From the NCBI GenBank assembly GCA_030830875.1, contig JAURMD010000161.1, positions 1 to 34,087 on the forward strand: a stretch of DNA of 34,087 nucleotides, read 5' to 3'. This document shows positions 16,237-22,745 of this stretch, one piece after another. Position 1 is the first letter of the stretch; every line of letters starts with the position of its first letter. The position numbers were made by a program, and so were the translations under genes. The notes under the pieces are model-generated. The model had not been told where the DNA came from. It was given only the letters and a program-made list of their open reading frames with translations, and did not search any database. Source of the DNA: Thermoplasmatota archaeon (GTDB taxonomy: Archaea; Thermoplasmatota; Poseidoniia; Poseidoniales; Poseidoniaceae).

Positions 16237-19200
16237 ATGGGAGCGCGTGCCATCGGCCTTGTCCTGCTCTTGATGTTCGCCCTCATACCCTCTCCAGCGC
16301 AGGGAGACCTCGTCACGCCTGAATTGGTTGTGGACTGGCAAGGCGACGGTGCCGGGCACCGGTATGAACTCCGCATGGGCGATGATGCTTCGTACGATAT
16401 CAACGTCATCCTCGAGATTGAGCGGAGCCTACAGTCGCTGCAGCCTGAGGTCAATGTCACGTGGTCCACCGTCGAAGGTCGTTCTGTCGCGACACTCAAC
16501 GCCGACCTCGCCCCCGAATGGGGCGATGACGTTCATCTTGAAGTGACGGTGTTGACCAAGGACGGAGAGGCCGTAACTGGGCCGGTCCTCAACCGGGCGT
16601 TCACCGTCGGGCGGTGGAACCAACCGATGGACGACCACGAATTGACCACCACCTCATCATGGACCCTCGAGCAGCGCCGAACCAACAACGATGGACCGCA
16701 AGCCTTCGTGCTCGATTTTAGCGGTCATGGTTGGCAACAGCGCGTCGACAACCGGCTGGATTCCTGGGACCTTGGCGATGGCTCCCTCTTGATGCTCGAA
16801 ACCATCGATTCGTCCACCATGGATCTGAACCTTACCCTTGACCGGGTGTGGCGGAACCAATCGAGCATCGGTGGCGTGGTCACCAGCACGGTGTTCGATG
16901 CCTCGGGTTACGGCTCGCTCATCCTCATTGACACGTCTGGAGGACTCCGAAGCGTGGTGACGACAACGGTGTCGGAGGCCAGCCTCAACCGTTCTGTGGT
17001 GCTTGGCGTCGTTGACGAACGCCTTCGGATTGAGGCGAACGGAAGCCTGAGTGTGAACGAAGATGATCAGGAAGAGGCGGGTGGGCAGTACGACCTCGAT
17101 GGAACCGTTTCGGTGCTTCTGCTCGAGCTTTGGGACGAGAACGGAACCCGCAGACTTGACCACCAGCAGGTCGAGGCTCAGGCCAACCTGGTCCTGATTG
17201 AAGACGGGACAAGGATGGACCTGGATTTGGACGCATTCTCTTCTCTGCAGCGATGGGAAGACGGCGTGCGCGTCGATCAACACGAGTTGTTGAAAGGTGA
17301 AGGCACCTTTGGTTTTGAGGACCAAGATGAGAACGCGACCATGGTCGTGAACGGCACGGTGCACCGTTTCCATCAAGAAAGCGTCGACGGCATCACCACC
17401 CAAGACACGCTCCACGTGGACGGAACGCTTTCCGGTGATGTTCAGGGCACCTTCGGGGTCGTTCGCGGCATTGAGGCGACGACCACGACGATGAACGCTT
17501 CTGGCGTGACATTCGACGTAAACGTCATTCATCAGGAAGATTGGTTCAACATTTCGGGCCTTGGTGGTGGGTCTTTCCTCGATGGGGCTGGCGTAGGGGC
17601 CCACCACAACGAATCGTGGTCGTACGATGTGGTGGGCATCGATTACGACAACCGAACCGTTCGTCTCATTTGGGAACAAACAGGACCCGATCCCTCGGAG
17701 GGTGACGAACGACCACCCCGTTCACCGGTTCCTCTCGAGGCCCAAGCGCCAGAACCGGTTGACGGACTTGGGGAGGTTGACGTTGGGCGTGAGACAGGAC
17801 TTGTGCCAATCCCCATGCAGGCAGGAGACCGTGTCGTGCTCAATGGACAGGAAGGCCTCACGATGCAGGTTCAGGTGATCGAGCAGAGCACCGACGTCGC
17901 CGATGGGCGTACCTTCACCACCGTTCGATGGAGTGGGACCTACCTCGATGTTGAAGGAACGGCGAGCGGTCAGCTCGTTGCCGTAGGGCCGTTGTCCGGG
18001 CTCTCCACGAGCGTTGTTCGAAGCGTCGAAGTTCCCTATGGCGAAGAAAGCGACGTGGCGTGGCTCAATGAAACCCAACACCTCGATCGGGTCCTTTCCC
18101 CTTCGGTGGTGACGGAGGGCCAAAACACCCTTCCCGCACTTGTTTCGCTGTTGACCCCATCCGGCAGTGCCGTTGCAGAAGGTGGACGAAGTGCGGTGCT
18201 CGTCGCGGAGGTGGAGGACCCTGATTGGAACCTGCGGGAGGTCGTGGCGGACCTCTCGGCGCTCGGCCTTGGTCTTCGGTCTTTGAACGACAAGGGGCTT
18301 GACGGAGACACCTCCGTTGGGGACGACCGCTGGAGCACGGTGGTGTCCATCGTGGACGGCAACGTTGGCGTCTTCTCGGTCCCGGTCACGATGACCGATG
18401 CGTTTGGAGAGGTGATCGATGCCACGTGGTCCATCAATGTGGAAAACCCAGGGCCGCGGGCGGTTGGATTTGATATCGTTCCGGACCGAGTTGAACGCGG
18501 CTCGACCGTGATCATCGAGGTTACCGTGGTGGACCAGCACGGCGTGGAGTCCGTGAATCTCGATCTCTCGTTGCTCGGTGGAGGAGTGGAAGCGATGGAG
18601 CGTGTGGATGGAACCGACCGATGGGGCCTCAGCTTTGAGGTCCCTTCCACCTCAATACCTGGAACGGTGCAGTTGTTCTTGGAGATGACCGACGGTCAAG
18701 GTGCTACCCGCCGCAGCAGCGTGACCGTCGATTCCCGTCGTGGACTTGTGGGCCCCTTCTCGGGGGATGGGGTTGCTGAGCCCGTTCCGTTGGAGTTACT
18801 TGTGTTGAACGATGCGCCGAGCATTGTTGTTCCACCTCGTCTCGAGTTGAAGACCGACGACCGTGGTCGGTGCGTGCCGTACGAAGTCGAGGTCTCCGAC
18901 CTCGATGGTGTCCGCACCGTCCAAATTGACAGAGGAACCCTGACCCCCCTCGGAAGCAACGCTGGATGGTCCGATATGGTTGATGATGGAAGCCAAGGGG
19001 ACCTCGTCGCGGGTGACGGCATCTGGACCTCTTGCGTTGAAGTGCGGAGCGGTACCCCGTTGGGCGCCCATGAACTTCTGCTGAGGGCATCGGACGTGTT
19101 TGGGGCCGTTTCTCCGAGCGCTTCGGCGGTGGTCAGCCTTGCAGTGGGCGACGATCCGACTCAACCAGGTCGTGGGGTGTCGCAGGGTATCCTGTGGGTA

Positions 19201-19296
19201 GGTCTTGGAATCGGCGGTCTCGTTGTGCTTTTCGCTCTCGTGGTGATGCTCCGCCGCGGTCCGGTCTCGTTTGACGAAGCCTTCGGGGAGCGATGA
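16237..19296 (+). CDS. Large secreted, C-terminally anchored acidic surface protein with three Ig-like repeats
   Basis: Signal peptide; beta-rich acidic body; three repeats of the form V.V.D..G(V)..V..DLS.LG, two with (N/D)D.G..GD...GD..W; C-terminal TM helix followed by RRG. Confidence 0.85.
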   Translation: MGARAIGLVLLLMFALIPSPAQGDLVTPELVVDWQGDGAGHRYELRMGDDASYDINVILEIERSLQSLQPEVNVTWSTVEGRSVATLNADLAPEWGDDVHLEVTVLTKDGEAVTGPVLNRAFTVGRWNQPMDDHELTTTSSWTLEQRRTNNDGPQAFVLDFSGHGWQQRVDNRLDSWDLGDGSLLMLETIDSSTMDLNLTLDRVWRNQSSIGGVVTSTVFDASGYGSLILIDTSGGLRSVVTTTVSEASLNRSVVLGVVDERLRIEANGSLSVNEDDQEEAGGQYDLDGTVSVLLLELWDENGTRRLDHQQVEAQANLVLIEDGTRMDLDLDAFSSLQRWEDGVRVDQHELLKGEGTFGFEDQDENATMVVNGTVHRFHQESVDGITTQDTLHVDGTLSGDVQGTFGVVRGIEATTTTMNASGVTFDVNVIHQEDWFNISGLGGGSFLDGAGVGAHHNESWSYDVVGIDYDNRTVRLIWEQTGPDPSEGDERPPRSPVPLEAQAPEPVDGLGEVDVGRETGLVPIPMQAGDRVVLNGQEGLTMQVQVIEQSTDVADGRTFTTVRWSGTYLDVEGTASGQLVAVGPLSGLSTSVVRSVEVPYGEESDVAWLNETQHLDRVLSPSVVTEGQNTLPALVSLLTPSGSAVAEGGRSAVLVAEVEDPDWNLREVVADLSALGLGLRSLNDKGLDGDTSVGDDRWSTVVSIVDGNVGVFSVPVTMTDAFGEVIDATWSINVENPGPRAVGFDIVPDRVERGSTVIIEVTVVDQHGVESVNLDLSLLGGGVEAMERVDGTDRWGLSFEVPSTSIPGTVQLFLEMTDGQGATRRSSVTVDSRRGLVGPFSGDGVAEPVPLELLVLNDAPSIVVPPRLELKTDDRGRCVPYEVEVSDLDGVRTVQIDRGTLTPLGSNAGWSDMVDDGSQGDLVAGDGIWTSCVEVRSGTPLGAHELLLRASDVFGAVSPSASAVVSLAVGDDPTQPGRGVSQGILWVGLGIGGLVVLFALVVMLRRGPVSFDEAFGER

Positions 19297-20694: not shown

Positions 20695-21708
20695 ATGGCC
20701 GGTTCCCCCGTCTCGACGCACGACCCCGCAGCAGGAGAAGGCGCTGCCCCCGCATCACCTTCACCGGACCAACAGCGGCAAATGGAGCAAGCCTACGCCC
20801 AGATGAAGCGAAAAATGGCGATGCAAGCCCTCGGAAAGCGCATCAAACACAAGATCATGGTCCTCTCAGGAAAGGGCGGGGTTGGCAAGTCCACCGTGTC
20901 CACGGGCCTCGCGCTGTCCTTGGCTCAGCAAGGGCACAACGTTGGCATTTTGGACATCGACATCACCGGTCCTAACGTGCCCAAAATGATGGGGCTGAGC
21001 GGCAAGCGCCTCCATGTCGAAGAAGGGCGAATACATCCTGCGGTCGGTCACAATGGTGTCAAGGTCATTTCCATGGCCTTCTTGCTGGACGACGATGACA
21101 CGCCCGTCGTGTGGCGAGGTCCCATCAAGCTCGGCGCCATCCAGCAATTCATTGGGGATGTCGAATGGGGTGACCTCGATTACCTCGTCATCGATTTTCC
21201 CCCCGGCACGTCCGATGAACCGTTGACGGTCGCCCAATCCCTTCCAGACATCGATGGGATGGTTATCGTGACCACGCCCCAGGACGTGGCCTTGCTTGAC
21301 AGCCGCAAGTCGATTGGCTTCGCTGAGTCCCTCAAGGTCCCGGTGCTCGGTGTCGTTGAGAACATGAGCGGCTACACGCTGAGCGGCCGTGCACCCGCCG
21401 GAACCGAACTTCAGATTGCAGGGCCCGGTGGTCGGATGCACAACATCACCGCCGATGCCTCCGGTACGTTCTCCGTCACCCTCGACCTGTTCAAGCAAGG
21501 CGGAGGAAAATCCACAGCAGAGGAATTTAACGTGCCTTTCTTGGGCGCCCTCCCCTTCGACCCGGGCTTCGTCCGTGGGGGAGACGATGGCGTTCACCGT
21601 ATCGTCAGTGACCCTGAAGGCCCGTCGGCTCAGGCCTTTGCTCAGGTCGTAGCGGCCATTCAAGATCGAATTGCCATTGGCGGAAGCAGCAGCCTCGAGA
21701 TTGTCTGA
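20695..21708 (+). CDS. mrp: Mrp/ApbC/NBP35 family P-loop ATPase lacking the CxxC motif
   Basis: SGKGGVGKST, DIDITGP, VVWRGP, WGDLDYLVIDFPPGTSD, VTTPQDVA, VENMS. No cysteine anywhere in the 337-aa translation. Confidence 0.92.
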   Translation: MAGSPVSTHDPAAGEGAAPASPSPDQQRQMEQAYAQMKRKMAMQALGKRIKHKIMVLSGKGGVGKSTVSTGLALSLAQQGHNVGILDIDITGPNVPKMMGLSGKRLHVEEGRIHPAVGHNGVKVISMAFLLDDDDTPVVWRGPIKLGAIQQFIGDVEWGDLDYLVIDFPPGTSDEPLTVAQSLPDIDGMVIVTTPQDVALLDSRKSIGFAESLKVPVLGVVENMSGYTLSGRAPAGTELQIAGPGGRMHNITADASGTFSVTLDLFKQGGGKSTAEEFNVPFLGALPFDPGFVRGGDDGVHRIVSDPEGPSAQAFAQVVAAIQDRIAIGGSSSLEIV

Positions 21709-21718
21709 GGTGAGGGTC

Positions 21719-22075
21719 ATGAGCGGCGACATCCCTCGGCTGGTCCGTCTGGAACGTCGACCGAGCGACCTTCACCTCACATGGGAAGACGGAACAGAGC
21801 ACGAGGTGACCTACGATGACCTCAGGCATGCATGCCCGTGCGCCAAGTGTGCGCCCTCGCGCAACGACGATGGCACCAGCGCCATCCTTCGGAGGGAGGT
21901 CGAATCCTTGCCTTCGACGCTGCCCACCGTGCGAACCGTGGGCCACTATGCAGTGACCTTTGAGTGGGACGACAAGGGATGCAGCTCCGGTATTTACCGC
22001 TTTGAACGACTGTGGGCCCTCGGACGTCGTGAAGACCCCGACGGCGGACGACCCTACGTGCACGGAGCGTGGTGA
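21719..22075 (+). CDS. DUF971 / gamma-butyrobetaine hydroxylase N-terminal-like metal-binding protein
   Basis: L.WEDG...LRHACPCAKC...VGHYAV.FEW..GCSSGIY. GAGGTGA RBS before ATG 21719. Confidence 0.85.
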   Translation: MSGDIPRLVRLERRPSDLHLTWEDGTEHEVTYDDLRHACPCAKCAPSRNDDGTSAILRREVESLPSTLPTVRTVGHYAVTFEWDDKGCSSGIYRFERLWALGRREDPDGGRPYVHGAW

Positions 22076-22076
22076 G

Positions 22077-22745
22077 GTGTTTGAGGCCGTGGAGGTGCTC
22101 CACCTCGGGGCAGAGGCCGAAGTGACCGCTGGCCGATGGCTTGGTCTTGATGCAATTCGTAAGCAACGCCGCTCCCGTTCCTGGCGCCATCCTGATCTTG
22201 ACGAGCGCCTTGGCCGTCAGCGGTTGCTTGGAGAAGCAAGGCTGCTGCTTCGGCTGCATCGTGCTGGATTGCGCGTCCCGGCCCTGTACGACGCTGACGT
22301 TGAGCGTGACGTGCTCATCATGGAACGATTGCACGGCCGGCCGCTGATCGACGTGCTTCGTGACCCCTCGACCCCCGACGTTCTTGCCGTGATGCGCGCT
22401 GTTGGGTCTGAAGTTCGTCGGCTTCACGCTCATGCTGTGACCCACGGTGACCTCTCCACGAACAACATCCTGGTGACCCCAGATGGGAACGTCGCCCTCA
22501 TCGACTTTGGATTGTCCACGATCGAGTACGATGTGGAACGCTTTGGTATTGACCTGCATGTGCTCGACGAAGTGCTTGGGGCCAGCCACCCCGATCGTCA
22601 GGGGGCGATGGAATCCCTGCTCGAGGGCTACCTCGCCTCTGACCTCGCAGCGGCACAGGAAGGCTCTGGCGGAACGGTTCCATCGGCGGTTGACGTCGTC
22701 GAGCGGTTGGACGTTGTTCGCACGCGAGTGCGCTATCACGGTTGA
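22077..22745 (+). CDS. bud32: KEOPS complex kinase/ATPase Bud32
   Basis: GAEA, K.R....RHPDLDERL...R...EARLL, HGDLSTNN, IDFGL, DLHVL, C-terminal RVRY. GTG start 1 nt after the DUF971 stop. Confidence 0.9.
   Translation: MFEAVEVLHLGAEAEVTAGRWLGLDAIRKQRRSRSWRHPDLDERLGRQRLLGEARLLLRLHRAGLRVPALYDADVERDVLIMERLHGRPLIDVLRDPSTPDVLAVMRAVGSEVRRLHAHAVTHGDLSTNNILVTPDGNVALIDFGLSTIEYDVERFGIDLHVLDEVLGASHPDRQGAMESLLEGYLASDLAAAQEGSGGTVPSAVDVVERLDVVRTRVRYHG

Follow-up and report, generated by a model that had tools for sequence, protein, structure and literature searches.

Background

The question raised by this locus is what an Mrp-type ATPase may do in iron-sulfur (Fe-S) cluster maturation if it has no cysteine (Cys) at all, and whether the small protein encoded directly after it is its partner. 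The locus occupies positions 20,695 to 22,075 of a 34,087-nucleotide stretch of DNA (hereinafter the window, i.e., the whole stretch analysed; contig JAURMD010000161.1 of assembly GCA_030830875.1) from a Thermoplasmatota archaeon of the family Poseidoniaceae. Its order, the Poseidoniales, comprises abundant archaea of marine surface waters. The first gene encodes an Mrp/NBP35-family ATPase, referred to as Mrp; the second encodes a DUF971 protein. That the two make up a functional module, of a kind already known in bacteria and plastids, is in our opinion well supported. Our preferred reading, to which we assign a probability of about 0.55, is that the system represents the form that the Mrp/NBP35-DUF971 module of Fe-S maturation has taken in Poseidoniales, with Mrp as an ATP-driven clamp and DUF971 as a metal-stabilised adaptor.

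In carriers of the Mrp/ApbC type the CxxC motif is essential for bridging a [4Fe-4S] cluster (PMC6345978). The protein HCF101 joins the domains DUF59, Mrp and DUF971 in one chain, an architecture common to the bacterial PVC forms (PMC7980591); it is devoid of the family CxxC and yet binds a [4Fe-4S] cluster, with the critical Cys128 located in DUF59 (PMC2805927). The CxCxxC motif is absent from DUF971 of the green-lineage (plant) HCF101 (PMC7980591). DUF971 is cofit with Mrp in Shewanella and Pseudomonas (10.1101/072470), and as late as 2025 its function was termed undefined (PMC11838916). The initial annotation of the locus, which proposed that a Cys-free ATPase is coupled to a cluster-holding DUF971 protein, relied on the same facts about HCF101, and its statements agree with PMC2805927 and PMC7980591. 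The literature searched contained no description of the Mrp-DUF971 pair in Poseidoniales or of the insert reported below.

Results

The ATPase and its beta insert

The elements of the locus are as follows (all on the forward strand).

20695..21708: Mrp/NBP35-family P-loop ATPase, 337 residues, no Cys (open reading frame, translation, PF10609)
20869..20892: deviant Walker A motif GKGGVGKS, Mrp residues 59-66 (translation)
21373..21483: insert of 37 residues, Y227-L263, at the site of the CPxC loop of about 10 residues (alignments, AlphaFold2)
21707..21716: purine-rich, putative Shine-Dalgarno-like element GAGGTGAGGG (sequence)
21719..22075: DUF971 / GBBH-like_N protein, 118 residues, four Cys (PF06155, 3LUU, AlphaFold2)
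21833..21850: CPCAKC, with C39, C41 and C44 of DUF971 (sequence)
21980..21982: the fourth Cys, C88, in KGCSSGIY (HMMER alignments)

The assignment of Mrp is firm at the level of the family: PF10609 (NUBPL/Mrp P-loop NTPase) is matched with E 2.7e-89 and 299.2 bits against a cut-off of 27.1. Its Walker A follows the pattern GKGGhGK[ST], which defines the deviant motif for the Mrp family (PMC6345978), and G62, G64 and K65 are invariant in an alignment of 76 sequences (A2). The initial annotation described a Cys-free protein of 337 residues with ATPase motifs; this is borne out by the translation, which contains no C, has the Walker A and keeps the VVENMS motif intact. A profile search found no other full-length member of the Mrp family in the genome, which is 94.6% complete. 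The AlphaFold2 model built from the 76-row alignment has a mean predicted local distance difference test (pLDDT) of 89, and its top Foldseek matches are ApbC (8ZKC), AF2382 of Archaeoglobus fulgidus (2PH1) and Cfd1 (6G2G). By sequence, the relatives in the PDB are again Cfd1, ApbC and the A. fulgidus proteins (AF2382, AF_226), with E from 1e-51 to 1e-55 and Cfd1 6G2G as the best match (1.4e-54); the HypB-type 3VX3 is much weaker (1.9e-30). The NCBIfam equivalog cut-offs are not reached, the score being 210.1 against 348 for ApbC and 319.9 against 450 for MrpORP.

The part of Mrp where a cluster would be expected is the unusual one. The PF10609 match is split in two: the first part pairs Mrp residues 50-229 with profile positions 2-179, and the second begins near residue 263; three PDB alignments are likewise interrupted at about 229 and restart at about 263. 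At this position canonical relatives have ENMSGF-x-CPxC-G-x4-IF. The predicted structure of the insert consists of four beta strands (227-232, 238-242, 248-252 and 258-263) with a pLDDT of 91-97 in the block; its match to Big_6 is weak (22.5 bits, below the cut-off). The conserved CxxC after ENMS, a trait of the Mrp family, is thus not found in Mrp of the window. The initial annotation noted that CPxC is absent after VENMS; there is indeed no CxxC, but the motif is not merely missing, since the 37-residue beta insert replaces it. Because the CPxC loop has given way to an insert without a conserved Cys, canonical cluster carriage is impossible for this Mrp.

As a separate observation, the N-terminus of Mrp (20695-20730) carries an order-wide motif M-x-x-S-P-[VI]-S-H-H, which reads SPVSTH in the window; it is followed by a variable acidic stretch and then by a conserved helix EQAYxxxK.

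The DUF971 protein

The stop codon of Mrp (TGA, 21706-21708) and the ATG of DUF971 at 21719 are separated by a spacer of 10 nucleotides. The second protein matches PF06155 with E 1.8e-17 and 64.2 bits against a cut-off of 22.8, and 3LUU with E 1.2e-8; it is encoded in a single copy in the genome. Its AlphaFold2 model has a pLDDT of 89, and Foldseek returns 2L6N (E 4e-4) and next, weakly, N-terminal domains of BBOX1. C39, C41 and C44 are invariant in the DUF971 alignments A1 and A3. DUF971 proteins are expected to combine CxCxxC with a distal histidine (His), i.e., a Cys3His set; here the CxCxxC is present and the distal ligand position is taken by Cys. In HMMER alignments C88 falls exactly on the His (DGH..G) of the solved DUF971 proteins 3LUU, 2L6N and 2L6P, while the Cys/His site as such is missing in the alignment of 2L6N. 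Two claims of the initial annotation are therefore sustained: a DUF971 gene with CPCAKC ten nucleotides downstream (coordinates and the PF06155 match agree) and a fourth Cys at the usual His position. The ribosome-binding site that it ascribes to the gene would be the purine-rich element at 21707-21716.

The C-terminal tail of DUF971, DPDxGxPYVHGAW (22034-22072; columns 118-135 of A1), is conserved in the family to which the window belongs and is absent in the family whose DUF971 does not adjoin mrp. We mention it as a candidate docking peptide.

Conservation across the order

The order is named Poseidoniales in the database matches, and our sample of it amounts to 151 genomes in three families: that of the window (f1) and two others (f2 and f3). 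DUF971 is found in 150 and Mrp in 147 of the 151, one copy each if fragments are set aside. The 120 closest homologues of Mrp are at least 77% identical to it, and those with a name are labelled Poseidoniales, Poseidoniaceae or Poseidonia; 110 of them have no Cys, and in 119 the insert was recognised by a pattern. For families f2 and f3, 20 regions were fetched and the Mrp gene was obtained from 19; all 19 have the insert and none has CxxC. Twelve of these proteins are free of Cys, five have one and two have two, at non-conserved sites.

In DUF971, all loci of the three families where the pattern found the gene have the fourth Cys (35/35). Among database homologues of DUF971 long enough to judge (n=73), 56 match the strict pattern; of the remaining 17, most keep the Cys by eye; Ser or Trp stands there in two, and the tail is aberrant in four. 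Since 110/120 homologues and 35/35 loci share these traits, neither the Cys-free Mrp nor the fourth Cys of DUF971 is due to chance.

The wider phylum

Of 301 Thermoplasmatota genomes sampled, 79 belong to the class of the window, and 77 of these have DUF971; among the 222 others just one does. Eight loci encode DUF59-Mrp-DUF971 fusions: seven in a sister family of the same class (one cut at a contig end) and one in another Thermoplasmatota genome. The fusion proteins have about 460-490 residues with DUF971 at the C-terminus, which is the HCF101 architecture. Two genera keep CPEC and the DGH motif; in one genus of the sister family (g25) the loop is short and Cys-free, as in HCF101, and DUF971 has lost the His too. 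In the g25 fusions (L043, L044; genomes G326, G321) we observe DPSPGAGAGIY in place of the His motif, with CPCAHC kept. Over the rest of the phylum the loop was read in the 30 Mrp loci with the highest scores, to which families with lower scores (e.g., f28) do not belong, and ENMSGF-x-CPxC was found in 30/30.

Mrp without CxxC in bacteria

Mrp without CxxC is common in general: among 125 scorable representatives there are 30 such proteins, of which 10 have no Cys whatever. The search among representatives also surfaced DUF59-Mrp proteins with a similar insert (P0163 and P0183). P0163 led to 80 loci, nearly all labelled Planctomycetota; the complete Rohdeia mirabilis Pla163 genome (NZ_CP036290.1) is among their sources. 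CxxC is absent in 80/80, and in the 78 loci where the end of the loop was found it is replaced by a beta-type segment of 38-44 residues, whose position coincides with that of the archaeal insert. These proteins are fused to DUF59; counted from a point shortly ahead of the P-loop up to where the open frame ends, they have 0-4 Cys. The flanks fetched for the 80 loci, of up to 6 kb, contained no DUF971; elsewhere in the genome it is present in 7/8 Planctomycetota with the insert type, against 63/117 of the other Planctomycetota sampled.

DUF971 and Mrp lie within 2 kb of each other in 25 of 67 Planctomycetota genomes that have DUF971, and ten of the 25 pairs were taken as fused, the open-frame length being the same for both matches. 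Twenty regions of this kind were fetched and 19 contained the Mrp motif; CxxC is kept in 12/19 and absent in 7/19. The His motif was read in 18 of the 20 fetched DUF971 proteins, and the pattern found no motif in the other two. These numbers do not support compensation by DUF971 for the loss of CxxC as a rule. Nor does the change from His to Cys follow that loss, as the DUF971 His is retained in 4/4 proteins read from Planctomycetota with the insert-type, CxxC-less Mrp.

A FastTree phylogeny was built from 161 chosen Mrp cores (246 columns, the loop masked, motif-less fragments left out, Shimodaira-Hasegawa-like supports). The archaeal and planctomycete insert clades each have support 1.0, and each is nested among CxxC-bearing relatives; their common ancestor spans 156 of the 161 tips, with moderate supports of 0.70-0.93 at key nodes. 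The ATPase of the window clusters with CxxC proteins of archaeal type and not with the fused forms of bacterial type. Since the two clades are not sister once the loop is masked, the inserts probably arose independently. A shared origin by gene transfer was considered and is not favoured by this loop-masked tree.

Gene linkage and neighbourhood

Mrp and DUF971 are adjacent in 73 of the 75 f1 genomes; of the two exceptions, one has neither gene and the other has them on contig ends. The initial annotation proposed a check of whether CxxC loss co-occurs with an adjacent DUF971; in f2 and f3 the adjacency is absent although both traits are present. Thus, adjacency is a trait of one family and co-presence is a trait of the order. 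In four f3 genomes (G023, G027, G055, G103) both genes are on one contig, 120-134 kb apart, and the similar spacing points to a conserved large-scale gene order. In an f3 genome Mrp lies, as in the window, between a gene for a low-molecular-weight phosphatase (upstream) and one for a PAP2-type membrane protein (downstream).

The gene that follows in the window and an Fe-S row from elsewhere in the same genome are given below.

22077..22745, forward strand: KEOPS kinase Bud32 (TIGR03724, 166.8 bits against a cut-off of 125)
contig C139, 7651-9569 (a separate contig): sufS - sufE - DUF59 (SufT-like, TSPGCP)

The GTG start of bud32 is 1 nucleotide past the stop of DUF971, which suggests a possible mrp-duf971-bud32 operon in this family. 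Bud32 itself stands outside the Fe-S reading; a Kae1 gene was not seen beside it in the part of the window that was read. We also note that in f3 (G023:C1:525514-528771) DUF971 lies directly upstream of Pus10 and is divergent from a DnaJ-like gene, so that a tRNA-modification gene follows DUF971 in both families (Bud32 in f1, Pus10 in f3); this may be chance.

One metatranscriptomic run (X20, share 0.13) yielded two contigs of 151 nucleotides, 21550-21700 and 21692-21842. No more than 17 letters of the latter fall within the Mrp gene, and it is not counted as bridging the two genes; DNA carry-over is possible.

Since the sufS-sufE-DUF59 row and also an A-type carrier are encoded, other cluster-holding parts exist in the genome. 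An open reading frame of 1019 residues at 16237-19296 (forward strand), with hydrophobic stretches at both termini, probably encodes an unrelated surface protein, judging from the translation only.

Discussion

Comparison with known systems

A close parallel is HCF101 of plastids, apicomplexans and bacteria of the PVC type: the three modules are the same, the ATPase is likewise devoid of the canonical CxxC, and the CxCxxC of DUF971 in the window matches the red-lineage and bacterial forms (PMC7980591). Unlike the single polypeptide of HCF101, the genome has three separate genes, with DUF59 on another contig; its ATPase is wholly Cys-free and has the beta insert, and its DUF971 has Cys in place of His. 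HCF101 holds its cluster through a non-canonical Cys, and in the set considered here only DUF971 and DUF59 could supply one.

With the carriers ApbC, Mrp, Nbp35 and Cfd1 the ATPase has the fold and the nucleotide motifs in common; they have the cluster-bridging CxxC, whereas Mrp of the window has none and remains below the equivalog cut-offs. The stand-alone DUF971 proteins of bacteria (3LUU, PP_5002 of Pseudomonas, and that of Shewanella) are likewise small single-domain proteins with CxCxxC and with Mrp cofitness reported in 10.1101/072470, and in Planctomycetota their genes often follow mrp directly, as is the case in the window; however, they have His as the fourth ligand, and the partner Mrp keeps CxxC in most of the pairs read. 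The planctomycete DUF59-Mrp with the insert has undergone the same loop swap, but it is fused to DUF59 and its DUF971 is distant and of the His type.

The ATPase-type HypB of Thermococcus with HypA (5AUN-5AUQ), a Foldseek match, also pairs an ATPase dimer of the Mrp/MinD fold with a small partner, and HypA has a Cys4 zinc site. This is an analogy only: DUF971 is not HypA, and the similarity in sequence is much weaker.

Proposed mechanism and its alternatives

We presume that the Poseidoniales carry an HCF101-like set as separate genes, with Mrp and DUF971 at this locus and DUF59/SufT behind sufS-sufE elsewhere. The ATPase retains its nucleotide switch, and the CPxC loop, which in relatives bridges [4Fe-4S] across the dimer, has been swapped for the insert; Mrp would then most likely act as a dimeric clamp or adaptor powered by ATP, in which the insert may form a protein surface along the axis of the dimer. 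DUF971 may dock onto it in the role of the accessory domain that other organisms carry fused to Mrp. Its Cys4 site is more likely to hold a structural metal, presumably zinc, as a Cys4 variant of Cys3His, than a cluster; we base this on the fact that the Cys/His site is missing in plant HCF101, in 2L6N and in the sister-family genus g25. The anatomy of the two proteins, their conservation, and their adjacency and fusion in relatives are observed directly. The initial annotation regarded Mrp and DUF971 as a functional pair, and we keep this view in the light of the adjacency in f1, the eight fusion loci, the 25/67 Planctomycetota genomes and the published cofitness (10.1101/072470).

Several points weigh against this reading. 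Adjacency drops to 0/71 in f3 and 0/2 in f2, and in f3 DUF971 adjoins Pus10 and a DnaJ-like gene. The contact between Mrp and DUF971 is putative; a complex prediction (two Mrp, two ATP and one DUF971; alignments A2 and A3), run without controls, scored 0.13 against a mark of 0.32 and is counted neither for nor against binding. We take zinc to occupy the homologous site of gamma-butyrobetaine hydroxylase, and a literature search on this gave nothing relevant. The Cys-free Mrp might also have left Fe-S metabolism altogether. Finally, a strict four-Cys DUF971 throughout the order, beside a sole Mrp without Cys, is what one would predict if the cluster-holding role had moved to DUF971. In that case Fe or Fe-S would be ligated by its four Cys, within one DUF971 or shared between two copies bound to the Mrp dimer, and the Cys-free ATPase would drive only loading and release. 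We consider such a shift unlikely, and the same holds for its more elaborate form, in which the two inserts form a platform and the all-Cys sites, pairing across the ATPase dimer, hold a transferable cluster. The shift agrees with the sole Mrp being Cys-free in nearly all close homologues and in 12/19 proteins of the other families (sporadic Cys in seven), with the order-wide conservation of all four DUF971 Cys, and with the fact that among the sequences read the change from His to Cys is seen solely in this order; HCF101, too, binds [4Fe-4S] without CxxC via other Cys (PMC2805927). Yet the most critical Cys of HCF101 is in DUF59, and plant DUF971 has no CxCxxC (PMC2805927, PMC7980591). Furthermore, Planctomycetota with the insert-type Mrp keep the DUF971 His in 4/4 proteins read, and DUF971 is paired with a CxxC-bearing Mrp in the majority of the planctomycete pairs read. 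Replacement of Cys3His by Cys4 is a common neutral change in zinc sites.

It could also be argued that there is no specific partnership, i.e., that the adjacency is a recent rearrangement and the Cys-free Mrp has been repurposed as an ATPase of the MinD/ParA-like or metallochaperone type outside Fe-S maturation. The limitation of adjacency to one family fits this, as does the otherwise preserved gene order around Mrp, which suggests that DUF971 and bud32 were inserted there; so do the equivalog scores below the cut-offs and the Foldseek match to the ATPase-type HypB of HypAB complexes. We find this proposal the least convincing. The two families were independently fused or brought together in the sister family and in Planctomycetota, the cofitness is published (10.1101/072470), both genes are kept in nearly every genome of the order, and the closest relatives by sequence are Fe-S carriers and not HypB-type proteins. 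We therefore favour the clamp and adaptor, followed by the cluster on DUF971 and then by the absence of a partnership.

Conclusions

Three things are new in this observation: an order-wide archaeal version of the module in which the sole Mrp is Cys-free; a beta insert that takes the place of the cluster loop and recurs in an unrelated bacterial clade; and an all-Cys site in DUF971. If the cluster were on DUF971 after all, this would be the first defined biochemical function for DUF971, and with the swap of CxxC for the beta insert Mrp would have ceased to be a carrier and become purely a motor driven by ATP. As the sole Mrp is Cys-free, only DUF971 or other partners can account for any binding of a cluster by the pair, and the Poseidoniales provide a natural separation of functions in which the role of DUF971 can be tested. 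The predicted insert, found in two unrelated lineages, suggests that there may be a second, cluster-independent way to build the Mrp dimer interface.

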